Source of the DNA: Spirochaetia bacterium
GTDB taxonomy: Bacteria > Spirochaetota > Spirochaetia > UBA9216
Direction of reading: 5' to 3'
Length of the DNA: 64,000 nt
NCBI GenBank assembly: GCA_963677925.2
Contig: CAXXYH010000004.1
Span: forward strand, 896,001-960,000
The notes below the pieces were generated by a model. It had not been told where the DNA came from. It did not search any database and saw only the letters and a list, made by a program, of their open reading frames with translations. The translations under genes and the position numbers were made by a program. Shown one piece after another: positions 6,874 to 62,675 of this stretch. The number at the start of each line of letters is the position of its first letter. The first letter of the stretch is position 1.

Positions 6874-6891
6874 AGTCAAATACCTCTGTTT

Positions 6892-28065: not shown

Positions 28066-28095
28066 ACCGGGGTGTTTCTCCCCGGTTTTTTTTTT
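28066..28095 (+). terminator. Intrinsic terminator, possibly bidirectional
   Basis: ACCGGGG-loop-CCCCGGT followed by a long T-run. Confidence 0.7.
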
Positions 28096-28113
28096 GAGTC
28101 TGATAAAATCAGC

Positions 28114-30516: not shown

Positions 30517-30527
30517 TGGAGCATTAA

Positions 30528-31653: not shown

Positions 31654-31681
31654 CCCCGCAGCCGCGAATCCGGCTGCGGGG
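31654..31681. terminator. GC-rich hairpin after the nucleotidase stop
   Basis: CCCCGCAGCCG-loop-CGGCTGCGGGG. Confidence 0.6.
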
Positions 31682-39871: not shown

Positions 39872-39881
39872 GCTCTCTTAT

Positions 39882-39932
39882 TATATGCGGGTTGCACACA
39901 GATTTTGAAAAAATATGTAAAAAGTGCACATA
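39882..39932. promoter_or_regulatory. Tandem PucR/CdaR-type sites
   Basis: TATATGCGGGTTGCACACA and TATGTAAAAAGTGCACATA, 32 bp apart, upstream of the ABC operon. Confidence 0.5.
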
Positions 39933-40044
39933 GCCCTATCTTTGAACCCGTAATAGAATAATCCAAGAATATAATCATATTATAACAAGAAAATAATAGT
40001 TTATCGATATTGAAAACTCTGCTGGAAGTTTTAAGGAGGTACCA

Positions 40045-41001: not shown

Positions 41002-41002
41002 A

Positions 41003-41863: not shown

Positions 41864-41873
41864 GAGGCGGCAG

Positions 41874-43891: not shown

Positions 43892-43932
43892 TACCGGTAC
43901 AAATATAAAACTGTGTTTATACAGGAGGAAGT

Positions 43933-45477: not shown

Positions 45478-45485
45478 CTCTAATA

Positions 45486-45509
45486 TCCGGGGGGGCACCC
45501 TCCCCCGGA
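45486..45509 (+). terminator. GC hairpin between the binding-protein gene and the esterases (mRNA stabiliser or attenuator)
   Basis: TCCGGGGGGG-CAC-CCTCCCCCGGA, no T-tail. Confidence 0.45.
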
Positions 45510-45549
45510 ATAATCATAATTATTTTTAACCAGTTCCCGGAGTGAATCA

Positions 45550-46362
45550 ATGGCCAGAATTAAGTGTGAGTATTATTCAAAAATCCTTACGATGAATGTC
45601 GCAGCAACCGTGTATCTTCCGTCATTTTCTACAGCGGAAGCCAATTTCATGCCGGATGAAAAGCGCTTTGACCCTCAGCGGCGTTTTAAAACCCTCACGC
45701 TGCTTCACGGCTTTTCAGGTGACCATACTATATGGGAAAGACGTTCCTGTATGGAAATGTATGCCGAGGAGAATATGCTGGCCATAGTTTGTCCCAGCGG
45801 ATACAACGGTCATTACACTGACTGGGTAACTGGGCCGCAGCACCTCAGTTTTCTTGAAAAAGAGTTTCTGCCTGCAATGCAGACCATGTTCCCTCTTTCA
45901 AAAAAACGGGAGGATAATTATGTGGGCGGTCTTTCCATGGGCGGTTACGGAGCTGCAAAATGGGCTTTTACATACCCTGAAACCTTTTCCCGGCTAATCA
46001 ATTTTTCCGGAGGGGTGGATATTGTCCCCAGAATCGAGCATTACAAAGAAAAGCTCGGTGTCCCCGTCACTGAGACAGTTTTCGGTGATCTATCTGCAAT
46101 TGAGGGCAGCGAGCATGATATCTATCATCTTATGTCTGAGCTGGCGCGCACTCGAAAGCTTAAACCGGAAATCTATTCCTGCTGCGGAACCGAAGATATT
46201 CCGGTCATGGAGGCTCATAGAAAGCTTGTTGCTTTGGGTCGTGAACTTGGTTTTGATGTAACGGCTTTTGAGGGCCCCGGCCGGCATGATTTTCATTTCT
46301 GGAATCAGGAACTTAAAAAGGTTATATACGACTGGCTGCCTCTTGAAAAGCCGGCCTATTAG
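45550..46362 (+). CDS. Esterase (tributyrin esterase / XynC-like alpha/beta hydrolase)
   Basis: LLHG, GLSMGGYG, CGTED, GRHDFHFW. Confidence 0.9.
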   Translation: MARIKCEYYSKILTMNVAATVYLPSFSTAEANFMPDEKRFDPQRRFKTLTLLHGFSGDHTIWERRSCMEMYAEENMLAIVCPSGYNGHYTDWVTGPQHLSFLEKEFLPAMQTMFPLSKKREDNYVGGLSMGGYGAAKWAFTYPETFSRLINFSGGVDIVPRIEHYKEKLGVPVTETVFGDLSAIEGSEHDIYHLMSELARTRKLKPEIYSCCGTEDIPVMEAHRKLVALGRELGFDVTAFEGPGRHDFHFWNQELKKVIYDWLPLEKPAY

Positions 46363-46374
46363 AAGGAGTAGAAA

Positions 46375-47178
46375 ATGGGTTGTCTGGAATACCGATTCCG
46401 ATCATCTGTGCTTGAATGTTCAACAAGAATTACTATAACACTTCCGGATTTTGCAAGTCTGACAAAGGGTGACCCGCTCGTGACGACTTATCCTGAAAAC
46501 CTGAAGCTGCCTACCATCTATCTGCTGCATGGAGGCGGCGGAGAGTCTTCTGACTGGGTGCGTCATACTCAGATTGAGAGACTTTCAAATGAAAAGAAAT
46601 TCATGACTGTCTCTATAGATGCAATGGAAAGTTTTTTTACAGATATGGTGCACGGCAGAAAATATTTTACCTATCTGACTGAAGAAGTTCCGATGATTGT
46701 GCAGCGGCTTTTTCCCTCATCTCCTGATAGAAAAGACAATTATCTGGCTGGTTTTTCAATGGGTGGGCACGGCGCAATGAAGGTCGCTCTCAGATGTCCG
46801 GAGAAATTCTGTGCAGTACTTGCGGTTTCAGGAGCCAAGGACCTTGTAAAAATGGCGAAGCTTGCCGAAAAGCTTGGCCTGCCGGCATCAAACAGCAATA
46901 TTACAGAAGCTTTCGGCGGTATAGACAGTATTTACAATACCGAAAACGATCTTATTTTTCTCGCACAGCAGCTGAAAGATTCCGGTGTGAAACCGCCGGA
47001 AATATTTCTCGGCTGCGGAACGGAAGACTACGGCTATGAGCTCTGTCTGGAATATAAACAAATTCTTGATGATATCGGACTTGAAAATGAGTTTATCTCG
47101 CTGCCGGGCGGTCATGATTTTTACCTTGCAAACGGTATGATATCAAAGGCCGTGAAGGATTTGTTCTTTAAAAATTAA
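46375..47178 (+). CDS. Esterase, paralogue of the preceding gene
   Basis: YLLHG, GFSMGGHG, CGTED, GGHDF. Confidence 0.9.
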   Translation: MGCLEYRFRSSVLECSTRITITLPDFASLTKGDPLVTTYPENLKLPTIYLLHGGGGESSDWVRHTQIERLSNEKKFMTVSIDAMESFFTDMVHGRKYFTYLTEEVPMIVQRLFPSSPDRKDNYLAGFSMGGHGAMKVALRCPEKFCAVLAVSGAKDLVKMAKLAEKLGLPASNSNITEAFGGIDSIYNTENDLIFLAQQLKDSGVKPPEIFLGCGTEDYGYELCLEYKQILDDIGLENEFISLPGGHDFYLANGMISKAVKDLFFKN

Positions 47179-47189
47179 GGATTTGCATA

Positions 47190-50096
47190 ATGTTCAAAGA
47201 ATCAAAATACTACAATGGAAAGAATGGCTGCAAAATTGCAGTGGATCTGTACAGACCCGAAGATTCTGATACACAGATGCCTGTGGTTCTTAATGTCGCC
47301 TATGCTCCCAGAAAAGAACGTTTTGAACGATATAATGATTTTGTAAAATTACTTATTGATAAGGGCTATGCCGCAGCCTTCTCGGATCCACGCGGGGCCG
47401 GGGCTTCATACGGGACCCATGAGGGTTTTTACGGGCTGATAGATGCTGAGGACTATGAGCTGGTAATAAATGAAATTGCAGCCGAGCCCTGGTGCAGCGG
47501 ATCAGTGGGGATGTTCGGAGGCTCAAACAGCGGCTTCATTCAGCTTCTGACTGCCAGCCGTAAACCTGAAGCTCTCAAGGCTATAATTCCCTGTGATGCA
47601 TCAGTTGATATGTATTACCAGAATAATGTGAACGGCGCCTGTGATATTCCGCCTGGTAATGCCAGGGGCAGCAGTTCTTTGGCGGCCTCGTTCGCGGATG
47701 ACCTTCTTGTTGATGAAGAATCAGCAAAAGAGCTGTTAAAGCAGCATTCGGACAATCTGCCCTTTCTCGGTCAGTACCGGCGGAATGTGTACCGGGATAC
47801 TGTTAATGAAAATATAGGATACGCCCCCTACGCTGAGATTTCTCCCTGGAACAGGATGGATGATCTGAAGTATTCGGGAATCAGTACTTTTTATAATGCA
47901 GCCTGGTACGATCCGGGTGTAACCTGGTCAGTTATCGCTCAGAAGGATACCGGAGGAAGACAGGTTATCGGTCCCTGGAAGCATACGGAGATATTCAGTC
48001 AGAAGAATACAGAATCCGGTACATACTTTGACTGGAAGCAGAGTTATCTTGATTTCTTTGACAGTACTCTTAAAAATACAGAAAGCCATGCCTCCACCCA
48101 GCCTCCTGTCAGGTATTTAACTGTGAATGAGGATCCCGGTTTTGAGTGGAAGTTTGCTGCTAACTGGCCTGTTGACGGGCAGCGGTGGACCGAGTTCTTT
48201 TTTGATTCCAATCTCTCAATGAGTGATGCTCCTCCTTCGGAAACCGCTTCTATAGGCTACTGTCCTGATGACTCGGTTGAAATGATGGGATTCGGCAGGA
48301 TGAACCGGAATCTGGGTGCTGAGTTCGGTTCACAAAGCACAAAATGTATGGGCTTTATAGGCCCTGAATTAAGTACAGATTTAGAAATAACAGGAATCCC
48401 GGTTGTGGATATACAGGTGACTTCGAATTCCAGAGACGGTCTGTTTATTGCAGTACTTGAAGATGTCCGCAAGGACGGAAGCTCAGTGTATATAACCGAC
48501 GGAGCAATACGTGCTTCACATGGAAAGATACACCAAAACCGGAGCTGGGATGCTCTGGGAATTCCATACCACCGGGGCTGTGAAGAAGATGCTGTTGAAC
48601 TGAGTGCTGATAAACCCGTGAATCTCAAGTTCAACCTTGAGGCAATCTCCTACCGGATTCGGCGGGGAAGCAGGCTCAGGCTAAGTGTCTTCTGCGGGTC
48701 GGCAAATACCTACCATCAGCCTGAGGGCATGCCGGAAGATGTTATGATAAAGCTGTATACTGGGGGAGCTGCCGGTTCCAGGCTGATTCTTCCTTATACT
48801 GCAGAGGGAAATTATACATTCAGCGGTAATATGAGTTCGGATTCTCCTGAACTCATACCCTCCGGTGATACTGAACTTCTGGTTTTTGAAAAGGAAATAT
48901 ATCTGAAAACTGCTGCCTGCTGGAAGTGTTTCAGGTGCAGTCAGGTATATCCGGAAGGTGATGTGAAGATATATGAAACAGAACATTTCAGATTGAAGAA
49001 GTATACGGAATCAGGCCTTGTTAAAATAAAAATAGATGAGCCATGGCTGAAGTTCGAATCTGCTTCGGAAAAAGTGCTTCAGGCTCCCGGGTTTAAAAAT
49101 GTTTCACAGGAGATCCCGGACTATTCGGGCTGCAGAAAAAGTTCTGAAATTGATGATGAAAAATACATATATATAAAAAATCTTAATTTTGCGACTGTCC
49201 CTGTCAGGAGGGGCAAGCGCGGCTATCCAAACCTGCAGCCGGTGGAAAAGATGGATCTGTTTATCGATCTGATAAAGCCTGAAAATCCTGAAATCGCGAA
49301 AACTGACGCGGTTTATCCATGTATTGTGTGGATTCACGGATACGGCGGTTCAAACCATCTTTTCCATAATACATGCGGGCGCTTCCTTGAAGAGGGCTAT
49401 GCTGTGGCCTCAATCGACTACCGCATATATCCGCCCAACCTGTGGCCTGCGCCTGCTGTAGATGCCAAGGGTGCTATCAGATACCTCAAGGCAAACAGCG
49501 GAAGCTTGGGTCTGGACCCTGAGCGTTTCGGTATTATCGGCGTTTCCGCCGGCGGACATCTTTCTGCATATCTTGCTGCAACAAACGGCAGTCCGGCAAC
49601 TGAGGGAAATATCGGCGGAAATACAGGTACGGACAGTTCAGTAAAGGCCGCTGCAATATATTATCCCTGGTCGGATATGTTCAGCTTCGGAGATGATATT
49701 GCAGAACTTTATCCCGATAAACCGGAGAAGGTTGATGATTCAGACGGTCCCATAGCTCCTCCTGCCTGTCTGATAGGATTTGACGGTGAAGGCCTGGGAC
49801 TGGAAGTTCTTAAAAAGCATATGGCTGATGATGATGAATATTTTCAGAAGTTTATACGCATCGGAAAGGATGCCAGTCCTCTGTATCAGGTTACCTGCAA
49901 AAGTGCTCCAAGCGTTTTTGTTCATGGTATTACAGAGAACAATATACAGATTCCTATGAACCAGAGCGTCCGTATGTTCAGGGCACTGACTAAAAAGGGA
50001 GTTAAATCACTTATGTTCTGCAACAACAATGGAAATTACGGTGATGATCCCGAGGTTAAGGAGGCTGTAATCCAGTTCATGAAGAATAGAATATAA
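47190..50096 (+). CDS. CocE/NonD-family hydrolase fused to a second alpha/beta hydrolase domain
   Basis: DPRGAGASYG, GMFGGSNSG, WYD, IGPWKH, PepX_C-like region; then WIHGYG, ASIDYR, GVSAGG. Confidence 0.85.
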   Translation: MFKESKYYNGKNGCKIAVDLYRPEDSDTQMPVVLNVAYAPRKERFERYNDFVKLLIDKGYAAAFSDPRGAGASYGTHEGFYGLIDAEDYELVINEIAAEPWCSGSVGMFGGSNSGFIQLLTASRKPEALKAIIPCDASVDMYYQNNVNGACDIPPGNARGSSSLAASFADDLLVDEESAKELLKQHSDNLPFLGQYRRNVYRDTVNENIGYAPYAEISPWNRMDDLKYSGISTFYNAAWYDPGVTWSVIAQKDTGGRQVIGPWKHTEIFSQKNTESGTYFDWKQSYLDFFDSTLKNTESHASTQPPVRYLTVNEDPGFEWKFAANWPVDGQRWTEFFFDSNLSMSDAPPSETASIGYCPDDSVEMMGFGRMNRNLGAEFGSQSTKCMGFIGPELSTDLEITGIPVVDIQVTSNSRDGLFIAVLEDVRKDGSSVYITDGAIRASHGKIHQNRSWDALGIPYHRGCEEDAVELSADKPVNLKFNLEAISYRIRRGSRLRLSVFCGSANTYHQPEGMPEDVMIKLYTGGAAGSRLILPYTAEGNYTFSGNMSSDSPELIPSGDTELLVFEKEIYLKTAACWKCFRCSQVYPEGDVKIYETEHFRLKKYTESGLVKIKIDEPWLKFESASEKVLQAPGFKNVSQEIPDYSGCRKSSEIDDEKYIYIKNLNFATVPVRRGKRGYPNLQPVEKMDLFIDLIKPENPEIAKTDAVYPCIVWIHGYGGSNHLFHNTCGRFLEEGYAVASIDYRIYPPNLWPAPAVDAKGAIRYLKANSGSLGLDPERFGIIGVSAGGHLSAYLAATNGSPATEGNIGGNTGTDSSVKAAAIYYPWSDMFSFGDDIAELYPDKPEKVDDSDGPIAPPACLIGFDGEGLGLEVLKKHMADDDEYFQKFIRIGKDASPLYQVTCKSAPSVFVHGITENNIQIPMNQSVRMFRALTKKGVKSLMFCNNNGNYGDDPEVKEAVIQFMKNRI

Positions 50097-50135: not shown

Positions 50136-50176
50136 TTGACAATTGGAATATCTAAGTTATAATGAGATTATAATCT
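50136..50176 (+). promoter_or_regulatory. Sigma70 promoter and palindromic operator of the core catabolic operon
   Basis: TTGACA (50136)-N16-TATAAT (50158), then AGATTATAATCT (50165-50176). Confidence 0.7.
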
Positions 50177-50317: not shown

Positions 50318-50989
50318 ATGGCACATGTTTATACGAACATCGAGAGACCTGATAAAGAACTGATTGAAAAATACAAAGAGCAGGCTTCGGCAACTGTATA
50401 TGAAGCTTCAGGCAGAAAGGGGTCTATTGATCCTGCAATTAAACCGATAGCAAAGGGAATGAAGATCTGCGGTCCCGCAATCACTGTTGAATGCAAAGCC
50501 AACGATAATCTGATGCTTCACAAGGCCATCCAGGTGGCAAAACCCGGTGATGTAATAATTTCAACTACTCAGGCTTTTTATAATGCCGGATACTTCGGCG
50601 GGCTGATGGCTGGTTCTGCTGTAGCCAGAGGAATTGCAGGTCTTGTTATCGACGGGGGAATCAGAGACAGCGAAGAAATCATAGAAATGGGGTTTCCGAT
50701 TTTTTCAAGACAGATTTGTATACGCGGAACAGTCAAGGCTCAGCTCGGTTCTGTAAATAAACCGATTATATTCGGCGGGGAAATTGTAAATCCGGGCGAC
50801 CTGGTTCTTGGGGATGATGACGGACTCGTAATCGTTCCAAGAGAAAGAATGGAAGAGGTTCTTGAAGCTTCTCAGAAGAGAGTTCAGAAAGAGATTGAAA
50901 AGGCTGAAATACTCGGAACCGGAACTCCCGGTGTAATTGTAAACAAGCTTGACGCAGTCTTTGAACGCCTCGGCCTTATTGAGGAATAA
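50318..50989 (+). CDS. HMG/CHA aldolase (LigK/RraA family)
   Basis: DNLMLH; G-X20-RD-X2-E motif intact (GLMA...DGGIRDSEE); GDDDGLV; 223 aa, LigK-like length. Confidence 0.85.
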   Translation: MAHVYTNIERPDKELIEKYKEQASATVYEASGRKGSIDPAIKPIAKGMKICGPAITVECKANDNLMLHKAIQVAKPGDVIISTTQAFYNAGYFGGLMAGSAVARGIAGLVIDGGIRDSEEIIEMGFPIFSRQICIRGTVKAQLGSVNKPIIFGGEIVNPGDLVLGDDDGLVIVPRERMEEVLEASQKRVQKEIEKAEILGTGTPGVIVNKLDAVFERLGLIEE

Positions 50990-50990
50990 G

Positions 50991-52040
50991 ATGAAGGTAA
51001 AAAAAGAAGATCTGGCTAAGACCATTTCCCTGCTGCTTGCCGCTTACGGAGCCGGCGAGAATGAGCAGGAAACAGTTTCCAGAATAATGATAGAGGCAGA
51101 TTCAAAGGGTATTGCCACACACGGCCTGTATTTCCTTCCGATGCTTCTTCAGCGGATCGAATCAGGACTTGTGCAGGTTCCTACAAATATTACAGAGATA
51201 ACAAACGATGCTGCAATCGCTCATCTAGACGGCGGAAACGGAATCGGACAGACTGCTGCTGAAGCGGCTATGAATCTGGCCATCGAAAAAGCCGGCAAGT
51301 TCGGAATCGGAATGTGCATGCTCAGAAATACCAATCATGTCGGGCTTCTGGGTCATTACAGCCTGATGGCTGCAAACAGGGGAATGCTTGGTATATGCAT
51401 GTGCAACAGTGCCCCTGCAATGGCTCCCTGGGGCGGTGCAGAGGCTATGTTCGGCACCAATCCCTTTTCGATTGCAGCACCTGCAGCAGATAACTATCCT
51501 ATAGCTCTTGATATGTCCACAAGCCTTGTCGCCCGCGGAAAGATCCGTCGAGCACTCAGAATGAATGAGCCTATTCCTGAAGGCTGGGCCTTTGATGCCG
51601 ACGGAAAGAGCACAACCGACCCGGAAGCTGCTATGGCGGGTACACTGATGCCGGTAGGAGGTCCGAAGGGCTACGGCATGGCACTGTTTATTGATATGCT
51701 CTGCGGCCTGGTTGCCGGTTCAAGCTTCGGTAAGGATGTAAAGACCTTCCACAAGCCGCTCGGGCCTACAGGTGTCGGGTTTTCAGCAATTGCTGTTGAT
51801 ATCTCAAGGTTTATTGATAATGATAAATTTGAGGTGATGATAAAAGACTATATAGATGGAATCAAATCCTCTAAAAAAGCCGGCGGTGTTGATAAAATCT
51901 ACATGCCCGGTGAAATAGAAGCAGATAAGGAACGTAATTCACTTGAGAACGGCATTCAGGTCGATGACGGTGTAATTGAGTCCGTAAATAAACTGCTGAA
52001 AGAAAAAAGTATAAACTTTCAGTTAGGAGACGGGGTTTAA
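50991..52040 (+). CDS. Ldh_2 family 2-hydroxyacid oxidoreductase (ComC/AllD/YiaK fold)
   Basis: GIATHG, NTNHVG, GTNP, LDMSTS, GPKGYG, MPGE. Confidence 0.9.
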   Translation: MKVKKEDLAKTISLLLAAYGAGENEQETVSRIMIEADSKGIATHGLYFLPMLLQRIESGLVQVPTNITEITNDAAIAHLDGGNGIGQTAAEAAMNLAIEKAGKFGIGMCMLRNTNHVGLLGHYSLMAANRGMLGICMCNSAPAMAPWGGAEAMFGTNPFSIAAPAADNYPIALDMSTSLVARGKIRRALRMNEPIPEGWAFDADGKSTTDPEAAMAGTLMPVGGPKGYGMALFIDMLCGLVAGSSFGKDVKTFHKPLGPTGVGFSAIAVDISRFIDNDKFEVMIKDYIDGIKSSKKAGGVDKIYMPGEIEADKERNSLENGIQVDDGVIESVNKLLKEKSINFQLGDGV

Positions 52041-52044
52041 TTCA

Positions 52045-53775
52045 ATGAACAAAATTCTAAGGGTAGATACAAGAACCGGTAATATCCGTTTTGTGAAACC
52101 GACAGAAGAAGAAATGCATGAAGGCGGCAGGTCGTTTATAGCAAACCACCTGATGAGAGAGGTTGATCCGGGATGTGATCCGCTCGGCCGTAAAAATCAT
52201 CTGATTATAGCAACCGGACTTCTCGGCGATACCAATCTTACAACTGCCGGAAGGCTTTCCATCGGCGGAAAGAGTCCTCTGACAGGCGGTGTCAAAGAGA
52301 GCAATGTCGGCGGCCTGGTCGGCAGAAGAATGGGCCGGATGGGTATTAAGGCTGTTATTCTTGAAGATGTACCTGAAAGCAGCAAGTGCTATGTTCTTGT
52401 TGTTAAAAATGATTCAGCTGTTCTGGTTGAAAAACCGGAACTTAAATGGATGGAAGCCAGTCCGACAATTAAGGTTCTTAAAGAAGAATACGGCGAGAAG
52501 GTCGGCGTTCTCTGTATCGGCCCTGCCGGTGAATATAAACTTGGGGCCGCAGTTGTTGCCACCACCGATCATACCGGTCTGCAGCTTAGAACTGCCGGAA
52601 GAGGCGGTCTTGGAGCTGTAATGGGCGCAAAGGGTGTGAAGGCTGTTGTTTTTGACGATGCAGGCGCAAAGCCTGATACTCTTGCTGATCCGGAAGCTTT
52701 CAAGGCTGCAGTACGTGAAGTTGCCGCAATTATAAAGGCAGATCCCAAAACTGACAACAGACATGAATTCGGTACTCCTGCAGTACTCGGAACATGTAAT
52801 GCAATCGGCATACTCCCGACCAGAAACTTCAGTTCCGGCAGTTTTGAACTGGCTGATGAAATTAACGGGGACAAGGTAGCCGAACTTATAGTCAGCCGCG
52901 GCGGCGAAGGCAAACGCGGACTTCCCTGCGTAATGGGCTGTATGATTCAATGTTCAAATATTTTTCCCGACCCGGAGGGAAAGGCTCATGTTGCTTCACT
53001 TCAGTATGAAAACATCGCCCTTCTGGGTTCAAACTGCGGAATCGGCGACATTGATGAAATTGCCATCCTTAACGATCTTGCAAACGAGGTAGGTATTGAT
53101 GCCATAGACGGCGGTGCGGCTGTCGGCATTGCCATGGAAGCCGGACTGCTTGAGTTCGGCGATTCCGAAGGGGCCAAGGATCTTCTTCGTCAGGTCGGTC
53201 AGGGAACACCATTCGGACGTATCATCGGTTCCGGAGCAGTAGCAACCGGAAAGGTTCTGGGAATAACAAGAATCCCTGCTACCAAGGGCCAGGCAATGCC
53301 GGCCTATGACCCGAGATCCCTGAAGGGCATCGGCGTAACCTACGCTATGTCGCCAATGGGCGCGGATCACACTGCCGGAAATACCCTTGAAACAGTGAAA
53401 TATCTGGATCCGAGAGGTACTGAAGGCCAGGTTGCAATATCATACAGACTTCAGGTGAGGGGTGCCCTTTTAGACAGTTTCGGGGTATGTCTTTTTCTAA
53501 GACCTGCCTTTGTCAAAGATCCTGAACTTGCAGCAAGACTTCTCAATGCCCGTTACGGCTGGACACTTACTTACAGGGATGTTCAGAAGATGTTTATTGA
53601 CTGCCTTAATGTTGAGCGTGAGTTTAATGAGAAGGCCGGTATTGATTCGAACAAGTGCGATATTCCCGAGTTTATGAGAGAAGAACCACTCCCGCCTTTC
53701 AACACTGTATTTGATGTGAGCAAGGCTGAGATGGATGCTATATGGGATGTGAAAATACAGGAGGACATTTTCTAA
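52045..53775 (+). CDS. Aldehyde:ferredoxin oxidoreductase (W/Mo-pterin family)
   Basis: KSPLTGG.KESN.GG, AGRGGLGAVMG.K, C..GC.IQC, YDPR, GADHT. Confidence 0.92.
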   Translation: MNKILRVDTRTGNIRFVKPTEEEMHEGGRSFIANHLMREVDPGCDPLGRKNHLIIATGLLGDTNLTTAGRLSIGGKSPLTGGVKESNVGGLVGRRMGRMGIKAVILEDVPESSKCYVLVVKNDSAVLVEKPELKWMEASPTIKVLKEEYGEKVGVLCIGPAGEYKLGAAVVATTDHTGLQLRTAGRGGLGAVMGAKGVKAVVFDDAGAKPDTLADPEAFKAAVREVAAIIKADPKTDNRHEFGTPAVLGTCNAIGILPTRNFSSGSFELADEINGDKVAELIVSRGGEGKRGLPCVMGCMIQCSNIFPDPEGKAHVASLQYENIALLGSNCGIGDIDEIAILNDLANEVGIDAIDGGAAVGIAMEAGLLEFGDSEGAKDLLRQVGQGTPFGRIIGSGAVATGKVLGITRIPATKGQAMPAYDPRSLKGIGVTYAMSPMGADHTAGNTLETVKYLDPRGTEGQVAISYRLQVRGALLDSFGVCLFLRPAFVKDPELAARLLNARYGWTLTYRDVQKMFIDCLNVEREFNEKAGIDSNKCDIPEFMREEPLPPFNTVFDVSKAEMDAIWDVKIQEDIF

Positions 53776-53776
53776 A

Positions 53777-54535
53777 ATGGCGGATTGTAAATATGATTTT
53801 GAAGGAAGAATCTGTGTTGTTACAGGTGCTTCAAGGGGTATCGGCGGCAGCATAGCCAGAATGATGCTCGAAGCCGGTGCAAGCCTTGCTCTTCTCGATA
53901 TGAATACCGAGGGAGCAGAAGCCCTTGCAGCAGAGTTCGACCCGGAAGGGAAGCGGACAATCTGCTGTAAAGTTAATGTCACAAACGAAGCAGATGTTAA
54001 GGCTGCTGTGGAAAAAGTGACCGCTAAGTTCGGAGGAATTGATATTCTTGTGAATGTTGCGGGTATTCTTAAGCACAAGCCTATCAACGAACTGAGCCTT
54101 GAGGATTTTACCTCGGTTGTAGATGTAAATCTTACCGGAACCTTTCTGATGTGCCGTGAAGTCACTCCGGTAATGAAAAAGAAGGGCCGCGGCAAGATTG
54201 TAAACATGGCCTCGCTCGGCGGAGAAACATCACGGAAAGTTGGCTGTAACTATGCCGGTTCAAAAGCAGGTGTTATGGGGCTTACAAAGTGTCTGGCCGG
54301 AGAGCTGGGTCCTGACGGAATATATGTGAATGCAATCAATCCCGGACCTATTATGACGGAGCTTACAAAGCAGGTGCCGCCTGAGGTTTTTGAAATATGG
54401 AATGAAGGCAGAAAGATTATTAAGGACGGAACGCCGGAAGATGTAGCAATGTCGGTTATGTTTCTGGCGTCGGAACAGTCCGACTGGATTACGGGTGTAG
54501 CGCTGGATGTAAACGGCGGAATATATATAGCTTAA
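53777..54535 (+). CDS. Short-chain dehydrogenase/reductase
   Basis: TGASRGIG, NVAG, YAGSK. Confidence 0.93.
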   Translation: MADCKYDFEGRICVVTGASRGIGGSIARMMLEAGASLALLDMNTEGAEALAAEFDPEGKRTICCKVNVTNEADVKAAVEKVTAKFGGIDILVNVAGILKHKPINELSLEDFTSVVDVNLTGTFLMCREVTPVMKKKGRGKIVNMASLGGETSRKVGCNYAGSKAGVMGLTKCLAGELGPDGIYVNAINPGPIMTELTKQVPPEVFEIWNEGRKIIKDGTPEDVAMSVMFLASEQSDWITGVALDVNGGIYIA

Positions 54536-54553
54536 AGATTTTTTGGAGGAAAT

Positions 54554-54919
54554 ATGGCTAAAACTATAGCAGTTAACATTAAAGATGTAACTCCGGTAAA
54601 AAGAGAACCGGCAAGAACATCTTGGACACTGGTTTCAGAAAAAACAGTAGGCGCTCAGAACCTTGCAGTTGGTGTTAATGAAACACCTGCCGGAAGTCAG
54701 GTTCCTGAGCATGAACATAACGTTGAAGAAGAAGTAATGTTCTTCGTAGCAGGCAGAGGCGTTTTCGTAACCGAAGATCAGGAAATACCTCTGGAGCCGG
54801 GTGTATGTGTTTACAATCCGCCGGGAGGAAAACACAAGATCCTCAACACAGGTGAAGAAACATTAAGATTCGTATGGATCTACGCACCTCAGCTTCCAAG
54901 CCACAGAATAGACGGATAA
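54554..54919 (+). CDS. Cupin (H-x-H...E...H metal site)
   Basis: PEHEHNVEEE...G.G...PPGGKH. Confidence 0.88.
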   Translation: MAKTIAVNIKDVTPVKREPARTSWTLVSEKTVGAQNLAVGVNETPAGSQVPEHEHNVEEEVMFFVAGRGVFVTEDQEIPLEPGVCVYNPPGGKHKILNTGEETLRFVWIYAPQLPSHRIDG

Positions 54920-54929
54920 GGAGAAAATA

Positions 54930-55898
54930 ATGGGTAATTGGGACCTTCCGCGCAAGGGCGGAAAAATGGAAAGTACTGATAAAATTTATTATCAGACTAT
55001 GACAAAAAGAGAACTTGAAGAAAGACTCAAGGTTAACGATGTTATCCTTATTCCTTTCGGTTCAACTGAAAACCACGGTGATTCACAGCCGATGGGCGAA
55101 GACGTATTCATCGTTACAAGAATGTGTGAAATGATTGCTGAAAAAACCGGATGTACAGTTGCAGAACCAATGTGGTACGCTTCTCATCCGTTCTCACACC
55201 TCGGTCAGAAATTTACAGTGCCTATCTCAGACGATGTAAACTCTGCACTTGTACGCCAGATAATTTCAGGTTACTGGAATGCAGGTTTCAGAAAAATGAT
55301 CCTCATGAGCAGCCACGGCCAGGAATACATCATTCCTTCAGCTATGCAGGAATGGGCAAAGAAATATCAGCTTCCGGCAATGATCTTTTTCATGGATGTA
55401 TGGAAAATTTCCGGTCAGGCAATGATGGACAAAGAACACGGCGGTCCGTTTGAGACTCCTTTCAGACACGGTGATGAAGCTGAAAACTCAGTCTGTCTTG
55501 CTCTGTTTGAAGAATTCGTACAGATGGAACACGCTGTTGATACAGAATGCTGGGGTTTCCTGCCTCCCGGTCATATCGACAAGGGCGGAGACATTTACGG
55601 CATGCCCATGGCAGGTCAGAGCGCTATCGGCGGCGGCGGAGTGGAGTTTGCCATCTATCCTGAAGGAGTTCTTGGAAAGCCTTCACTTGCAAAGGCTGAA
55701 AAAGCATTCGGCGCCATCGAAGCATACTGTGACTACGTGGTTAAGCTTCACAACGATATACTTGATAAATTTCCTGCAGGTAAACTTCCTGATGCTGAAT
55801 ATATGTCACAGAGAAGCAAGGAAGAAATCGAAGCTCTTCTCAAGGGACCGGATCAGCCCGGTGGAAAGCACATCTGGACTATAGCCTGGCCATCCTGA
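54930..55898 (+). CDS. IolN-like (3-dehydro-scyllo-inosose hydrolase) creatininase-fold hydrolase
   Basis: W.LP..GG.M....IYYQTMT...ERLK.ND.I.IP.GSTENHG; SHGQE; TPFRHGDE.E; resemblance to IolN recalled, not searched. Confidence 0.75.
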   Translation: MGNWDLPRKGGKMESTDKIYYQTMTKRELEERLKVNDVILIPFGSTENHGDSQPMGEDVFIVTRMCEMIAEKTGCTVAEPMWYASHPFSHLGQKFTVPISDDVNSALVRQIISGYWNAGFRKMILMSSHGQEYIIPSAMQEWAKKYQLPAMIFFMDVWKISGQAMMDKEHGGPFETPFRHGDEAENSVCLALFEEFVQMEHAVDTECWGFLPPGHIDKGGDIYGMPMAGQSAIGGGGVEFAIYPEGVLGKPSLAKAEKAFGAIEAYCDYVVKLHNDILDKFPAGKLPDAEYMSQRSKEEIEALLKGPDQPGGKHIWTIAWPS

Positions 55899-55923
55899 TA
55901 AGAAATCTGATAGGAGAGTGTAG

Positions 55924-56955
55924 ATGAAAGCGATAGTTAAAACTTCAGCTGAGCCTGGAGTATTTGAAGTAAAAGATGTACCTAAGCCTGAGGTAACCGA
56001 AAACCATGTACTGGTTCAGGTTAAGGCTACAGGTCTGTGCTACAGCGACTTTTCAATTCTTAATGCAACTTACACCGGAAGAAAGCCTGTGCCAATTCCT
56101 GTAATTATGGGCCATGAGGGTTCCGGTGTTATTGCTGAAATAGGCCGCGGCGTAAAGGGGCTTGAAGTAGGTCAGAGAGTAGCATTTGAAGCATTAAGCG
56201 GATGCGGTGTCTGTATTAACTGCCGGAAGGGCAACAAGAACATGTGTGAAGACTGGGATCACATAGGTATTACCTATGATGGTACTTTTGCCGAGTATGT
56301 TCTTCTTCCTGCACAGCTGATACACCCGCTTGCAGATAACATTTCTTTTGTTGATGCTGCCATCATGGAGCCTTTGAGTCTTGTAGTCCGCTCACTCGAG
56401 CATGTGCAGCCTCAGATTGGTGAAACCGCAGTTATTATCGGACCGGGAACAGTAGGACTTCTTCACCTTCAGGCACTCAAGTCTGCCGGTGTCGCAAAAA
56501 TTATTATCATCGGTCTTGATCCTGATGCAAAGAGATTTGAACTTGCCAAGGAACTTGGGGCTACTCATATTGTAAATGCAAGTAATGAGGATCCTGTAAA
56601 GGCAGTTGAAAGGATTACCGGCGGACTCAGAGCGGATATTCTGATTGAGACTGCAAGTTCTCCGAAGGTCTGGGATTATATGCTGGATCTGGTTGCTGCA
56701 AAAGGTCGTGTTTCCTGTTTCGGTCTTTATACTGAATCGAATTTTCAGCCAATCAAGGCCATCAGAAGCGGTATTACTATCTACGGTGACGTTGCATTCC
56801 TTGAGAGACACTTCATTAAGGGCCTGAGCTGGCTTGAAGCCGGTAAGGTTTCAGGTGAGGCCCTTGTTACTAAGAGGTACTCACTCGATGAGGCCGAACA
56901 GGCAATCAAGGATTTCAAGGCAAAAGAAACTGTAAAATGTATGTTTGAACTTTAA
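55924..56955 (+). CDS. Zn-dependent (MDR) polyol/cyclitol dehydrogenase
   Basis: GLCYSD, GHEGSG, C..C..C.......C, GPGTVG. Confidence 0.9.
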   Translation: MKAIVKTSAEPGVFEVKDVPKPEVTENHVLVQVKATGLCYSDFSILNATYTGRKPVPIPVIMGHEGSGVIAEIGRGVKGLEVGQRVAFEALSGCGVCINCRKGNKNMCEDWDHIGITYDGTFAEYVLLPAQLIHPLADNISFVDAAIMEPLSLVVRSLEHVQPQIGETAVIIGPGTVGLLHLQALKSAGVAKIIIIGLDPDAKRFELAKELGATHIVNASNEDPVKAVERITGGLRADILIETASSPKVWDYMLDLVAAKGRVSCFGLYTESNFQPIKAIRSGITIYGDVAFLERHFIKGLSWLEAGKVSGEALVTKRYSLDEAEQAIKDFKAKETVKCMFEL

Positions 56956-57058: not shown

Positions 57059-57982
57059 TTGAGTGTTATGAAATTGTTTCCGCATCCCGGGTATGAAGTC
57101 CTGTTTAATTTACCTGCTGATCAGCTTGAGCTTTTTAAAAAACTTGCACCGTACCGTAAATATAATGCACCGGAAGAACTCGAAATTACCGACAGCTCAG
57201 TGCCCGGTCTGAACGGCGCACCTGATGTGAAAATCCGCATATACAAAAGAAAAGGGCTTGGAAGAACTCCCATGCTTTTAAATATTCACGGCGGCGGATT
57301 TGTATCCGGAGATCTTGATAACGATAACCACCGGTGTACCGGATTTGCGATGAATGTGGACTGCGCTGTTGTTTCTGTTGAATACCGGCTTTCTCCAGAA
57401 CATGTCTTTCCTGCCGCACTCGAAGACTGCCGGGCTGTCCTCGAACACGCCTATGAAAATCCCGATCATTACGGTATCGACAGGGATAATATTGCTGTTT
57501 TCGGAACCAGTGCAGGCGGATGTATTGCCGCCGGTTTGTGTCTTTATCTCCGGGATCATAAAGGTCCGGCGATAAAAATGCAGATTCTTAATTTTCCTGT
57601 TCTTTCCGGTATAGCTGTTACCAATTCTGCAAAGATGCTTTATGAGGGAACTCCGATGGTTAAAGGTGAGGGCCTCTCTGATGTTGTACAGCTCTATCTC
57701 GGCAGCTATAACGGTTATGCACCCTCTTATTATGCACTTCCGGCTCTGGCACGCGATTTATACGGACTTCCGCCGGCCTTTGTTGTAACATGCGAATACG
57801 ATCCTCTGCGTGATGAAGGCATTGATTATGCAAAACGTCTGATGGAATTTGCGGTGCCGACGGAATTGCACAGTATGCCGAGAGTTTCACATGGTTATGA
57901 CCTGGTGAACGAAGCTCCACTTACAAAGTGGATTCGTGAGGGTATGTATTTGTCGCTTAAACGGGAATTCGGGCAGCTTTAG
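57059..57982 (+). CDS. HSL-family (GDXG) esterase
   Basis: HGGGF, YRLSPE, GTSAGG, YDPLRDE, SHG. Confidence 0.92.
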   Translation: MSVMKLFPHPGYEVLFNLPADQLELFKKLAPYRKYNAPEELEITDSSVPGLNGAPDVKIRIYKRKGLGRTPMLLNIHGGGFVSGDLDNDNHRCTGFAMNVDCAVVSVEYRLSPEHVFPAALEDCRAVLEHAYENPDHYGIDRDNIAVFGTSAGGCIAAGLCLYLRDHKGPAIKMQILNFPVLSGIAVTNSAKMLYEGTPMVKGEGLSDVVQLYLGSYNGYAPSYYALPALARDLYGLPPAFVVTCEYDPLRDEGIDYAKRLMEFAVPTELHSMPRVSHGYDLVNEAPLTKWIREGMYLSLKREFGQL

Positions 57983-58155
57983 GAAATAATGGTTTTTGAT
58001 AAAACTGTTTCTTCAAGTAGAAATATAGTTTAAACTGGAAAAAAGTTGACAGATTTCTATTCGGAGCTTAGGATAAATAATCTGAGTATAATCTGTATAT
58101 ACTTAAGATATTTTTTAATCGATATTTGTTTTTCGATAAGGGGAGGTTTTTCCAG

Positions 58156-58647
58156 GTGGCTGTTTTTCACAAAATAGAGAGGCATTTGGAGGAAGGAGCA
58201 ATGATTCTTCTTCTGATTGGCATCGGAGTAATAATGCTGCTCCAGGTAATACTGCGGTATGTTTTCATGGCTCCGCTCAGCTGGGCGGAAGAGGTGTGCC
58301 GCTATATGTTTGTCTGGACTGCGTTTTTAAGTATAGGTTACTGCTTCAGGCTGGATAAAATACTTGCTGTAGATGCACTATATTCAAAGTTTCCGGCATT
58401 GCCGCGCAGGGTTATTGATGTAGTGGCGGCAATTATGACATTCGGACTGTTTTCATTTTTCTTTTACCGCTCAATCATGATATTCATGGCAATAGCAAGG
58501 ACGGGGCAGGTCAGTTCTGCTCTCGAAATTCCCATGCAGTTTGTTTACCTTGCAGCTCCGGTGGGCTTCGGTCTTGGAGTTGTCCGTTATGTTCAGTCAA
58601 AAATTATTAAATTCAGAGCGTCAGCTAAAGAGGGGAGTTCGAAATGA
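58156..58647 (+). CDS. dctQ: TRAP small permease
   Basis: QVILRY, SWAEEVCRY, SSALEIP. Confidence 0.9.
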   Translation: MAVFHKIERHLEEGAMILLLIGIGVIMLLQVILRYVFMAPLSWAEEVCRYMFVWTAFLSIGYCFRLDKILAVDALYSKFPALPRRVIDVVAAIMTFGLFSFFFYRSIMIFMAIARTGQVSSALEIPMQFVYLAAPVGFGLGVVRYVQSKIIKFRASAKEGSSK

Positions 58648-59951
58648 TAGTTGGTCTTGCGTTTATTGTATTTTTTGCACTTCTCTTTCTCGGTATTCCC
58701 ATTGTTACTTCAATGGGCCTTACAACCCTTTTCCCTCTGCTTATCGGTTCCAATGTTCCATATAAAGTCGATACTGTAATCCGCTGGGCAATACAGGGAG
58801 CGGACAGTATTCCGCTCATTGCCATTCCGATGTTCATCCTGGCCGGAGCTGTTATGGCCCGCGGTGATATCTCAAAGAAGCTTTTTGATGTTTTCGCCTA
58901 TTTAATCGGCCGCCGTACCGCAGGTCTTCCCATTGCTGCAATTGTTACCGCACTTTTTTACGGCGCAATTTCAGGAAGCGGAGTAGCTACTGCAGCTGCA
59001 GTAGGCGGAATGACTATTCCGCTGCTTGTAGACAAACTGGGTTATGACAGGAAGTTCATAGCGGCAATGGTGGCTACGGCAGGAGGGCTGGGTGTAATTA
59101 TCCCACCGAGTATTCCGTTTATCTTTTACGGAATGATGACACAGACTTCAGTCGGCGAAATATTTGTTGCCGGTATAATTCCCGGCATACTCATCGCCCT
59201 CTCTCTTATGGTTTATACATTTATCTACTGCAAGAAAAACGGTGAAGACCGGCTGAAGATTGATACGGCGGTTGATGAGCTTAAAGCCAAGGGTTTTTTC
59301 AGGGTGTTCAGGGAAAGTTTCTTTGCTCTGATGTCTCCGGTTATCATCCTGGGCGGTATTTACAGCGGAATTGTTACTCCGACAGAGGCTGCAACTATTT
59401 CAGTTGCATATTCCCTGATTGTTTCGCTGTTTATCTACAAAACTATAAAGTTTAATGAGATTATCCCGATTTTTGCCAAGGCTGTTTCACAGTATGCGCC
59501 GCTGGTAATGGTAATTGCCCTTGCAATGTCTTTCAGCCGCATGATGACTGTTTTAAAGACTGCAAGTATAGTAGGTGCTTTTGTCTCCAGTGTCCTTTCG
59601 ACTCCATTCCTTTTTATCATCGGAATAATAATTCTTCTGCTGCTCATGGGAATGGTTATGGATGTAGGTTTTGCAGTTGTAATTCTCGGTCCGGTGTTTG
59701 CTCCGGTAGGTGTAATGATGGGGGTAAGCCCTGTTCATCTTTGTATCATCATGGTTTCCTGTCTAGCTATAGGAATGGTAACGCCTCCATTCGGTATGAA
59801 CCTCTTTGTAATTTCACCGATGGTAAACGAGAACGCATTCTCTGTGGGCCGCAAGGCCATCCCCTTTGTGCTGAGTTTCGGTATTGCCCTTTTGCTTATA
59901 GCATTCATACCGGATATAAGTTTGTTTCTTGTTAATCTGATGAGAGGTTGA
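58644..59951 (+). CDS. dctM: TRAP large permease
   Basis: AIPMFILAG, ISGSGVA, IIPPSIP, TPTEAA, TPPFG. Confidence 0.94.
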   Translation: MIVGLAFIVFFALLFLGIPIVTSMGLTTLFPLLIGSNVPYKVDTVIRWAIQGADSIPLIAIPMFILAGAVMARGDISKKLFDVFAYLIGRRTAGLPIAAIVTALFYGAISGSGVATAAAVGGMTIPLLVDKLGYDRKFIAAMVATAGGLGVIIPPSIPFIFYGMMTQTSVGEIFVAGIIPGILIALSLMVYTFIYCKKNGEDRLKIDTAVDELKAKGFFRVFRESFFALMSPVIILGGIYSGIVTPTEAATISVAYSLIVSLFIYKTIKFNEIIPIFAKAVSQYAPLVMVIALAMSFSRMMTVLKTASIVGAFVSSVLSTPFLFIIGIIILLLLMGMVMDVGFAVVILGPVFAPVGVMMGVSPVHLCIIMVSCLAIGMVTPPFGMNLFVISPMVNENAFSVGRKAIPFVLSFGIALLLIAFIPDISLFLVNLMRG

Positions 59952-60012
59952 CCAATAATTTAGGCTAAATCGTGTTTTACACACGCAGTATATATTTTCG
60001 AAGGAGTGTTTA

Positions 60013-61059
60013 ATGAAAGCAAAAAAAATCGTATTAATTCTCGTGCTTGCAATTGCTGTTGCAGGCTACTCATTCGCAGGCGGTCAGGGTGAGGCTGCAG
60101 ATGACGGAACCCTGAAACCCATCACGCTGTCTATAGGTTATGCATCAGCAGAAGGTATGTCAGGTGACCTGATTATCAAAGAAGAAGCTGCAAAGATTGC
60201 TGAAGAAACTGAAGGCAAATTTAAATTTGATATCTATCCGGCTGCACAGCTCGGCGGTGACCGTGAAATGGCAGAATCTGTTCAGCTTGGTGACCAGGGT
60301 ATTCTTTTCGGAGCTCCGTCTCCTCTTATCTCTTTTATTCCTGAAGTGGCTATTCTTGATATGCCGATGGCTTTCGCCGGATATACATGGGATGAAATTG
60401 ATTCAGTTATGAGCGGTGAAGTTGGAGATTTTCGAGAAAAACTTGATGCTGCTTATGAAAAAGCAGGATTCAAACTTCTTTCTCTCTTCAGTTCCAGAAT
60501 GTACCGTGTAATGTCTACAAATAAAAAGATTGAAAAGATTGAAGACTTCCAGGGCATCAGAATCAGAACCATGGAAAACAAGTATCATATGAATTTCTGG
60601 AATTCTCTTGGTGCAAGCGCAACTCCTATCAACTTCGCAGAGCTCTACCTTGCTCTTCAGCAGGGGCTCGTTGATGCTCAGGAAAACCCGATTCTCGTTT
60701 GTGTTCTCAACGGATTTCATGAGCAGCAGGATTACGTAATCAAGACTGACCATGTTCTCTTCTTTGCAGAACTTGTAACAGGACTTGATACCTACAACAG
60801 CCTGTCAACAGCACAGAGAGAAGTTCTTGATACCTTCATTGACAGAGCTTCTCCAAGAATTGCAGAGTCCGGTGAGGTTGATGATGTAATGTTCACAAAA
60901 CAGGCTATAGAGAAGGGAATGGAAATTATACAGCCCAGCGACAAGCTTATATCTGATATGAAGAAAGTTGCCGAAGGAACTTCAGACATGATTGCTGAAG
61001 CTGTAGGTGCAGATCTTGTTGACAGTCTTTTTGACAGTCTTGCAAAGGCTAAAAAATAG
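60013..61059 (+). CDS. dctP: TRAP substrate-binding protein
   Basis: YPAAQLG; G.RIRTM (carboxylate-binding Arg); ELYLALQQG.VDAQENP. Confidence 0.92.
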   Translation: MKAKKIVLILVLAIAVAGYSFAGGQGEAADDGTLKPITLSIGYASAEGMSGDLIIKEEAAKIAEETEGKFKFDIYPAAQLGGDREMAESVQLGDQGILFGAPSPLISFIPEVAILDMPMAFAGYTWDEIDSVMSGEVGDFREKLDAAYEKAGFKLLSLFSSRMYRVMSTNKKIEKIEDFQGIRIRTMENKYHMNFWNSLGASATPINFAELYLALQQGLVDAQENPILVCVLNGFHEQQDYVIKTDHVLFFAELVTGLDTYNSLSTAQREVLDTFIDRASPRIAESGEVDDVMFTKQAIEKGMEIIQPSDKLISDMKKVAEGTSDMIAEAVGADLVDSLFDSLAKAKK

Positions 61060-62510: not shown

Positions 62511-62675
62511 ATAATCCCCCTTTATCGATAAATAGATAATCGTTGATAACCTCAGGTTATAACTATAATAGATTCGCCGAATAAATTCTATTGACAAGGC
62601 ATCAATCTATGATAATATATTATTATTAGATTATAATCAAGAAATAATTAAAAAAGTATCTATTTAGGAGGTCTC

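Follow-up and report, generated by a model that had tools for sequence, protein, structure and literature searches.

We examined a 64,000-nucleotide stretch of a Spirochaetia genome (the window; GTDB lineage UBA9216, assembly GCA_963677925.2, contig CAXXYH010000004.1, positions 896,001 to 960,000), in which seven plus-strand open reading frames (ORFs) follow one another head to tail from position 50318 to 56955. Pfam and NCBIfam searches assigned the seven products to a class II aldolase of the type that acts on 4-carboxy-4-hydroxy-2-oxoadipate (CHA) or 4-hydroxy-4-methyl-2-oxoglutarate (HMG), an Ldh_2 dehydrogenase, an aldehyde:ferredoxin oxidoreductase (AOR), a short-chain dehydrogenase/reductase (SDR), a metal cupin, a hydrolase resembling the inositol-pathway enzyme IolN, and a zinc-dependent dehydrogenase (Table 1). 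With the start of the second gene corrected as explained below, the intergenic gaps are 1, 4, 1, 18, 10, and 25 nt. An earlier note on this DNA had described a tightly packed seven-gene operon without a dioxygenase and had read it as a pathway that opens the ring of quinate. The operon was borne out, with seven same-strand ORFs of assigned family separated by gaps of 1–25 nt, each lying where the note had placed it, and the neighbors it named (aroQ copies, esterases, and tripartite ATP-independent periplasmic (TRAP) importers) are present, with two aroQ genes and two TRAP systems. Its statement that no dioxygenase is present stood in part: no oxygenase family was matched among the operon proteins in the family searches, but because the cupin fold includes dioxygenases the point rests on context and not on sequence.

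Table 1. Features of the operon and of the surrounding part of the window, with positions in window coordinates; operon genes are listed first.
Feature	Position	Strand	Remarks
RraA-like class II aldolase, HMG/CHA aldolase/oxaloacetate decarboxylase type	50318-50989	+	NF006731, 3NOJ
Ldh_2-family 2-hydroxyacid dehydrogenase	50991-52040	+	PF02615 383 bits; ORF list begins at TTG 50949
Aldehyde:ferredoxin oxidoreductase (AOR) family, 576 aa	52045-53775	+	AFOR_N 176.8 bits, AFOR_C 219 bits
Classical SDR	53777-54535	+	Subfamily-level models only
Metal-binding monocupin (Cupin_2), 121 aa	54554-54919	+	Almost always immediately 5' of the hydrolase gene
IolN-like creatininase-fold hydrolase (class A)	54930-55898	+	NF041098 477.7 bits vs. 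cut-off 245
Zn-dependent medium-chain dehydrogenase (type A)	55924-56955	+	No equivalog cut-off reached
aroQ1, type II 3-dehydroquinate dehydratase, full EVHISN motif	35608-36018	+	TIGR01088 197.5 > 169.85
aroQ2, second type II dehydroquinase paralogue	36088-36495	+	TIGR01088 178.9 > 169.85; 49% identity to aroQ1
AP_endonuc_2 (xylose-isomerase-like TIM barrel) protein	36521-37285	+	After the aroQ pair in many loci; 10/26 long loci
GntR/FCD regulator	37532-38176	+	Directly 5' of the aldolase gene in most related loci
Three esterase genes: two PF00756 and one 968-aa CocE/NonD + BD-FAE fusion	45550-50096	+	Directly 5' of the operon
Sigma-70-type promoter match TTGACA-16-TATAAT, 12/12	50136-50163	+	Inside the 221-nt gap 5' of the operon
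Perfect 12-nt palindrome AGATTATAATCT	50165-50176	.	Directly 3' of the -10 box
Abhydrolase_3/BD-FAE esterase	57059-57982	+	Directly 3' of the operon
TRAP transporter dctQ, dctM, dctP (carboxylate importer type)	58126-61059	+	
Carboxylesterase	61128-62597		
Second TRAP system	from 62676 onward		

The aldolase scored above the NF006731 cut-off for CHA aldolase/oxaloacetate decarboxylase (242.4 vs. 179 bits) and aligned with PDB entry 3NOJ over residues 4–220 (E = 9.5e-50), keeping R116 and D117 opposite R123 and D124 of 3NOJ as well as a Glu opposite E199. We take R123 and D124 to be the catalytic arginine and a metal-binding aspartate of that enzyme, and presume roles for E199 and for Asp102 too. 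The Ldh_2 gene probably starts at ATG 50991, a start favored by a GAGGA ribosome-binding site and by its position one base past the aldolase stop. Its closest PDB relatives were L-sulfolactate dehydrogenase 2X06 (E = 1.8e-69) and malate dehydrogenase 1V9N, and it fell under every NCBIfam equivalog cut-off, the best being sulfolactate dehydrogenase (299 < 500), with AllD at 233 < 496. The AOR matched 9MQX (E = 7.7e-66, residues 1–552 aligned) and 1AOR (E = 2.4e-63); a C-x3-C-x3-C run matched the 9MQX motif C-x2-C-x3-C, a distal Cys within "GxCLF" was retained, and we take these four cysteines to be ligands of a [4Fe-4S] cluster. It is the most divergent of six AOR paralogues in the genome, which also encodes MoaC for pterin cofactor synthesis; tungsten and molybdenum use are not distinguishable by sequence. 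Only subfamily-level cut-offs were exceeded by the SDR (FabG-like NF009466, 227 > 222; glucose 1-dehydrogenase NF005559, 221.2 > 215), and it could serve either in the oxidation of a ring hydroxyl or in that of a ketol or lactol.

The remaining three genes encode the cupin, the hydrolase, and the zinc dehydrogenase. Residues H53, H55, E59, E60, and H94 of the cupin were invariant in 20 of 20 orthologues, and its AlphaFold2 model (predicted local distance difference test score 87.3) found the uncharacterized cupins TM1287 and TM1459 as best Foldseek matches in the PDB. The hydrolase is single-copy in the genome and aligned with creatininase 1Q3K (E = 4.7e-12) in the conserved motif regions; its E47, H49, D58, H129, H180, and E185, presumably the counterparts of the creatininase metal ligands, were invariant in 13 sequences. 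The zinc dehydrogenase stayed below the threonine-dehydrogenase-like (215.8 < 458) and IolM (198.5 < 450) cut-offs and is thus not an IolM equivalog.

Conservation of the block was assessed in two scans. A scan of species-representative genomes yielded 17 loci, of which one was near-identical to the window (L003), one distant (L018, 32% identity), and the other 15 had hydrolases 72–92% identical to ours. A metagenome scan with alignment gave 513 confirmed relatives, and the best 80 of the 513 (59–92% identity) were kept. The 15 genome-derived and 80 metagenome loci formed a pooled set of 95, in which a match had to cover 50% or more of the query and reach an identity threshold fixed for its family; its counts are of contigs, near-duplicates such as L069/L072 and L115/L117 included, and not of independent lineages. 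Outside this set, Thermovenabulum gondwanense, a named candidate carrier, has a hydrolase 64% identical to that of the window. The 15 genome-derived loci, from Spirochaetota or Atribacterota metagenome-assembled genomes (MAGs), held the cupin in 15, Ldh_2 in 14, and the aldolase in 14 cases by tblastn, the missing case being a contig end. Of the 87 loci whose upstream flank reached 450 nt or more, 81 had the cupin. In the 49 loci whose upstream flank spanned 5.6 kb or more, the cupin and Ldh_2 were each found in 47, the aldolase in 44, the SDR in 37, the GntR regulator in 36, and AOR in 31. Where both flanks were long (26 loci), the cupin, Ldh_2, and a Zn-dehydrogenase occurred in all 26 (the last as type A in 18 and type B in nine), with the aldolase and DctM in 24 each; the more variable genes were the SDR (19), AOR (15), aroQ (15), a GFO/IolG-like dehydrogenase (10), an AroE-like dehydrogenase (6), and an aldehyde dehydrogenase (ALDH, 3).

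Hydrolases exceeding the IolN cut-off were present in four genomes of an even sample of 401 Spirochaetota, this one included; two of the four belonged to class B, defined below. The same cut-off was exceeded in 40 of 86 Atribacterota genomes, 14 of the 86 having a match of ∼420–530 bits, a score class around 500 bits that covers both the window's form and a 50%-identical sister form. Two observations from outside the core block stand apart. The distant locus L018 (a Lysobacterales MAG, 6066-7932) carries a distant Ldh_2 gene (32%) directly 5' of a distant IolN-like gene (32%), without aldolase or cupin. A URO-D-family protein with only weak methyltransferase/decarboxylase-like matches recurs beside the block's TRAP and GFO genes (L008 13313-14530 and L012 14160-15359; also L017, L060, L069, and L087), and three of the 26 long loci contained it.

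The model that names the hydrolase, NF041098, spans at least three groups, which we call class A (the window), class A' (50% identical to it), and class B (35–38% identical, ∼370 aa). Class B sits in canonical inositol clusters: at L150 (G487:C10:27500-47400) the order IolG-LacI-IolM-IolN-IolO is that of the Thermotoga-type operon, and its neighbors exceeded the corresponding cut-offs (IolG, 460.8 > 355; IolM, 515.2 > 450; IolO, 380.2 > 300). Downstream of this cluster come a 561-aa thiamine diphosphate enzyme resembling acetolactate synthase and, in place of a sugar ATP-binding cassette (ABC) system, a TRAP transporter. The neighbors of class A missed every Iol cut-off; beyond the Zn-dehydrogenase score given above, a GFO protein from a related locus reached 154 against 355 for IolG, and the barrel proteins 29–74 bits against 300 for IolO. 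Class A', found at L147 (G001:C55:20000-39900) and L149 in Atribacterota, is accompanied by relatives of the window's cupin (44% identity) and Ldh_2 (37%), with the hydrolase at 50% (502.7 bits). L147 runs GntR, class I fumarase-like alpha and beta subunits, malic enzyme, a 305-aa protein, cupin, hydrolase, Ldh_2, nitroreductase, the tricarboxylate transporter TctCBA, and AOR, and probably encodes a related ring-opening pathway for another polycarboxylate. All three classes occur together in one Atribacterota genome (G001). Class B holds the canonical Iol clusters and coexists with class A, so that by context the class A hydrolase is unlikely to be an inositol enzyme; its automatically assigned name, "3-dehydro-scyllo-inosose hydrolase," is probably a misnomer.

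The strongest single argument for an aldehyde intermediate comes from the aldehyde-oxidizing genes. No long locus holds both AOR and ALDH: of the 26, 15 have AOR, three have a GucD-like NAD(P) aldehyde dehydrogenase (and, all three, the type B Zn-dehydrogenase and an IolO-like barrel), and eight have neither. Two unrelated aldehyde-oxidizing enzymes at the same place in a conserved block argue for an aldehyde intermediate. At one locus scored as having neither, L017, the contig does encode an AOR orthologue (56% identity), beside the aroQ pair and just outside the flank that was scored. Since cupin, hydrolase, Ldh_2, and AOR recur in the class A' cluster, the four families form a recurring module, which also points to an aldehyde step.

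The substrate is suggested by genes at the edges of the block. A type II dehydroquinase gene lay within ∼10 kb of it in 15 of the 26 long loci, often as the same aroQ1-aroQ2 pair, a frequency that chance could hardly produce, given that a genome carries one or two such genes. The AroE-like gene found in six of the 26 was checked in one case and exceeded the shikimate dehydrogenase cut-off (NF001314, 250.7 > 248). In two carrier genomes (G003 and G004) a type I dehydroquinase is encoded elsewhere and in a third (G085) a second aroQ pair, so that the linked pair is not simply the biosynthetic copy. The motif His of EVHxSN, which we take to be catalytic in type II dehydroquinases, is kept in aroQ1 in five of five orthologues and replaced by Phe or Tyr in aroQ2 in five of five (the window, L005, L008, L014, and L017), and the conserved pairing suggests, at the level of sequence, either a heteromer or a new reaction. 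The barrel protein that follows the pair matched IolI 1I60 (E = 8.9e-5) and TM0416 (E = 0.0028) best in the PDB, reached no equivalog, and scored 29 bits with IolO-type models. TRAP and TctC-type transporters import carboxylates, and their presence fits quinate, not neutral inositols; for the TRAP binding protein of a related locus, PDB matches came without ligand names and gave no clue to the substrate. The aldolase fits quinate as well, since CHA has the hydroxy-carboxy quaternary carbon that C1 of quinate would leave after ring opening between C3/C5 and C4.

We consider it probable that the operon is the core of an O2-independent, non-aromatizing catabolic route for quinate and, via 3-dehydroshikimate and AroQ, for shikimate. 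In this proposal, a hydroaromatic acid would be imported, in most related loci by the cluster-encoded TRAP carboxylate transporter, and two ring hydroxyls would be oxidized to give the cyclic 1,3-diketone 3,5-didehydroquinate, one by the Zn-dehydrogenase and the other by the SDR or by a GFO/IolG-like or AroE-like enzyme, depending on lineage; shikimate would enter via 3-dehydroshikimate and AroQ-catalyzed hydration. The class A hydrolase, presumably with a binuclear metal site, would then open the ring by a retro-Claisen reaction to 3-carboxy-3,6-dihydroxy-5-oxohexanoate, and the metal cupin would turn the terminal ketol into a 2-hydroxy-aldehyde. AOR, yielding reduced ferredoxin, or in other lineages the NAD(P) aldehyde dehydrogenase would oxidize the aldehyde to the acid, Ldh_2 would oxidize the 2-hydroxy acid to CHA, and the RraA-like aldolase would cleave CHA to pyruvate and oxaloacetate. 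Gene order in the window is roughly the reverse of this order of reactions. The sequences themselves show the gene families, the operon layout, the conservation of the block, its linkage with aroQ, aroE, and TRAP genes, and its distinctness from the canonical inositol-type IolN. The substrate, each intermediate, and the matching of enzymes with steps are proposed here from families and gene context; we infer, in particular, that the SDR and Zn-dehydrogenase act at C3 and C5 and that the cupin isomerizes the ketol, for which precedents exist within the cupin fold.

The redox balance drawn up in the earlier note is arithmetically right (C7H12O6 + 2 H2O - 8 H = C7H8O8 = pyruvic acid + oxaloacetic acid), and the block, whose conservation as a unit the note had made a test of its reading, recurs in Spirochaetota, Atribacterota, and many metagenome contigs. 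Its argument that exactly four oxidoreductases are present with no gene left over does not hold generally, as the dehydrogenase set varies and AOR and ALDH are both absent from eight of the 26 long loci. The general ring-opening idea is strongly supported by comparative genomics, namely by block conservation, aroQ/AroE linkage, and the exchange of AOR for ALDH.

Several observations weigh against the proposed route, in addition to the contig-based nature of the pooled counts. The eight long loci with neither AOR nor ALDH include four apparently of Atribacterota type, and the genomes concerned hold AOR homologues at no more than 33% identity; either a distal enzyme acts in such loci or the chemistry after ring opening differs, for example with the SDR acting on a lactol or with a 2-oxoaldehyde route. 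The aldolase falls below the stricter TIGR02798 ligK_PcmE cut-off (224.3 < 304.5) and has a Gly where Asp102 of 3NOJ aligns. NF041098 scores class A (478 bits) above class B (∼320 bits), and the characterized Thermotoga IolN was not found among the at least 120 matches listed in either of two protein searches, so that it may belong to class A or to class B; activity of class A on the diketo-inositol is, by context, unlikely. For the cupin, the PDB sequence search, the AlphaFold2 model with Foldseek, and a protein atlas returned generic or uncharacterized cupins only and gave no signal of function, a result that speaks neither for nor against an isomerase. In the window itself the aroQ pair lies 14 kb from the operon with no AroE gene nearby (two AroE homologues are encoded elsewhere in the genome), and in this genome, 99.6% complete, no type I dehydroquinase was found and the two aroQ genes were the only dehydroquinases, so the pair may also be biosynthetic.

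Among other explanations, the one that survives best keeps the same chemistry and changes the substrate: another carboxylated ring could converge on didehydroquinate, for example gallate, or gallate or caffeate esters freed by esterases. Six esterase genes surround the operon, including some with BD-FAE-type domains and one weak tannase_B match (34.8 bits), but the esterases are lineage-specific; the three directly upstream, queried at the related loci, were matched at none of those listed. In that case the keto tautomer of gallate would be hydrated to 3,5-didehydroquinate by the unusual aroQ2 or the IolI-like barrel (C7H6O5 + H2O = C7H8O6), so that only two downstream oxidations would be needed. 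The invariable pairing of aroQ, together with the loss of the motif His from aroQ2 in five of five orthologues, suggests a role other than plain dehydroquinate dehydration and would suit it, as would the varying number of ring dehydrogenases among loci. Set against this, the Zn-dehydrogenase in all 26 long loci and the frequent AroE-like and GFO genes point to hydroxylated rather than already oxidized substrates, and we recall no precedent for the dearomatizing hydration of a pyrogallol-type ring. We regard such an alternative substrate as unlikely. An extension of the main reading, in which quinate and shikimate remain substrates while the His-less AroQ2 and the IolI-like barrel together act as an entry point through which compounds at the level of dehydroshikimate or gallate also reach this diketone, seems to us a long shot.

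A second possibility is that no carbon–carbon bond is opened in a ring at all: the creatininase-fold protein would be an amidohydrolase, lactamase, or lactonase, the cluster would degrade a linear or heterocyclic acid, for instance a sugar-acid lactone or a cyclic amide, and the aldolase would act on some other 4-hydroxy-2-oxo acid. The fold family does consist mostly of amidohydrolases (creatininase, MftE, and formamide hydrolases), and Ldh_2, SDR, ALDH, and AOR families are common in sugar-acid pathways. Yet the block holds no gene for handling an amino group, the hydrolase is far nearer the IolN model (478 bits) than creatininase (80.8 bits), and the aroQ/aroE linkage and the CHA-type aldolase would be left unexplained, so that we hold this very unlikely. 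Scarcely credible is a true inositol pathway, with a 3-dehydro-scyllo-inosose hydrolase and a new lower branch for 5-keto-L-gluconate: the NF041098 cut-off is widely exceeded (477.7 vs. 245) and many related loci carry GFO/IolG-like, Zn-dehydrogenase, and IolO-like barrel genes, but these neighbors miss the IolM, IolG, and IolO cut-offs that class B clusters all exceed, classes A and B coexist in one genome, the transporters are of carboxylate type, aroQ/aroE adjacency is left unexplained, and the block has no dehydratase to supply a pyruvate aldolase with a 3-deoxy-2-oxo acid. None of these alternatives accounts as simply as quinate ring opening for the combination of aroQ, aroE, TRAP, and CHA-type aldolase genes. 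In the Atribacterota genome of L010 (15235-20721), an IolO-like barrel gene directly follows the block and precedes those for DAHP synthase, EPSP synthase, and chorismate synthase, neighbors in keeping with the link to quinate and shikimate. A biosynthetic reading, in which dehydroquinate would be made from pyruvate and oxaloacetate, was considered on account of this adjacency and rejected in view of the transporters and GntR regulator in the block and of a reverse retro-Claisen reaction that we expect to be uphill.

A promoter scan of 8.3 kb found 17 promoter-like sites against 11.5 expected, and the site 5' of the operon listed in Table 1 was its sole 12/12 match. The palindrome that follows it, AGATTATAATCT, is a possible operator as judged from its position and symmetry. 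Similar palindromes occupy promoter gaps at five places in the locus (39966, 50099, 50165, 58083, and 62628), one before the Opp-type ABC transporter genes, two before the aldolase gene, and one before each TRAP operon, those before opp and the TRAP operons being weaker. Enrichment alone was insignificant (eight matches with at most two mismatches vs. 4.85 expected, 12 of 100 shuffles reaching eight); five of the eight matches fall in promoter gaps of this locus. A 12-kb insert (38261-50096) with a PucR regulator, the Opp-type transporter, and the three esterases separates GntR from the aldolase gene, an interval of only ∼3.3 kb (2035-5389) in the near-identical record L003. Farther upstream, about 5 kb (∼27000-32000) with a GC content of 0.41–0.51 held no ORF above 142 aa, no tandem repeats, and no Rfam match, as was the case for Rfam across the whole window; it could be the remnant of a gene or an extended stretch of non-coding DNA.

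Quinate and shikimate rank among the most abundant alicyclic acids of plants and, both free and esterified in compounds of the chlorogenic-acid type, bring much plant carbon into soils, sediments, and guts. To our knowledge, the known catabolic routes for both go through protocatechuate and need oxygenases, and how fermenting anaerobes mineralize quinate has been an open question since quinate-fermenting isolates of about 1992. No paper on hydrolytic or anaerobic quinate ring opening was found in the full texts searched, a collection with few subscription journals. We see about an even chance that the block is the missing non-aromatic, O2-free quinate/shikimate route of fermenting and syntrophic bacteria, via 3,5-didehydroquinate, hydrolytic ring opening, and CHA and, in many lineages, with an AOR of tungsten type that reduces ferredoxin, and that it is widespread among Atribacterota and in the communities of sediments and digesters. 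If so, its gene set would make the anoxic fate of this plant carbon traceable in metagenomes and would identify a definite substrate for Atribacterota and for anaerobic Spirochaetota. It would also supply functions for a large, mis-named "IolN" subfamily, an AOR clade, an Ldh_2 clade, and a small cupin, and offer biotechnology a short O2-free conversion of quinate into two central metabolites.

Compared with classical quinate/shikimate catabolism (Qui/Qut/Qsu), the cluster has the same kinds of entry enzyme at its borders, an AroE-like dehydrogenase and a type II dehydroquinase. The classical route begins with quinate dehydrogenase and continues through AroQ/QuiB, dehydroshikimate dehydratase, protocatechuate, and dioxygenases, whereas here protocatechuate would be avoided; no QuiC/AsbF-type dehydroshikimate dehydratase was recognized (the barrel beside aroQ matches IolI/TM0416 weakly), and no dioxygenase was found. 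In the lower protocatechuate 4,5-cleavage pathway CHA is split into pyruvate and oxaloacetate, and with that pathway and the gallate pathway (LigK/PcmE/GalC; 3NOJ) the proposed route would share its last enzyme and last intermediate. Unlike there, the ring that gives rise to CHA would be non-aromatic and no O2 would be consumed, and neither an extradiol dioxygenase nor 4-carboxy-2-hydroxymuconate semialdehyde (CHMS) dehydrogenase, 2-pyrone-4,6-dicarboxylate (PDC) hydrolase, or 4-oxalomesaconate (OMA) hydratase was among the 27 proteins annotated in window positions 32–64 kb.

A closer likeness in strategy is found in the anaerobic phloroglucinol pathway (phloroglucinol reductase, dihydrophloroglucinol cyclohydrolase, TfD, and TAL), in which anaerobes open a six-membered carbocycle by hydrolysis at a cyclic beta-diketone and then cleave the chain (PMC10470551). 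There the diketone comes from the reduction of an aromatic ring, here it would come from the oxidation of a cyclitol acid, and the products differ. The text of that paper does not contain the words "creatininase," "IolN," or "quinate," and its ring-opening enzyme is probably of another family.

Nearest of all is the inositol pathway of Thermotoga maritima (IolG, IolM, IolN, and IolO; TM0411-TM0416), where two successive dehydrogenations of a cyclitol lead to a diketone that a creatininase-fold enzyme opens hydrolytically to a keto-acid with a terminal ketol (PMC5931981). Both systems draw on GFO, Zn-alcohol dehydrogenase, IolN-like hydrolase, and AP_endonuc_2 barrel families. They differ in that the hydrolase here forms a separate subfamily, 35–38% identical to the form in canonical IolG-IolM-IolN-IolO clusters and with neighbors that miss the Iol cut-offs; in that the Thermotoga lower pathway (epimerase, UxaB, UxaA, and 2-keto-3-deoxygluconate) is replaced by cupin, AOR or ALDH, Ldh_2, and CHA aldolase; and in that TRAP transporters stand in place of sugar ABC transport, with the block linked to aroQ and aroE. 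Most likely, then, known families and a known ring-opening strategy are joined here into a pathway that seems not to have been described and that serves another class of substrate, one of ecological importance.

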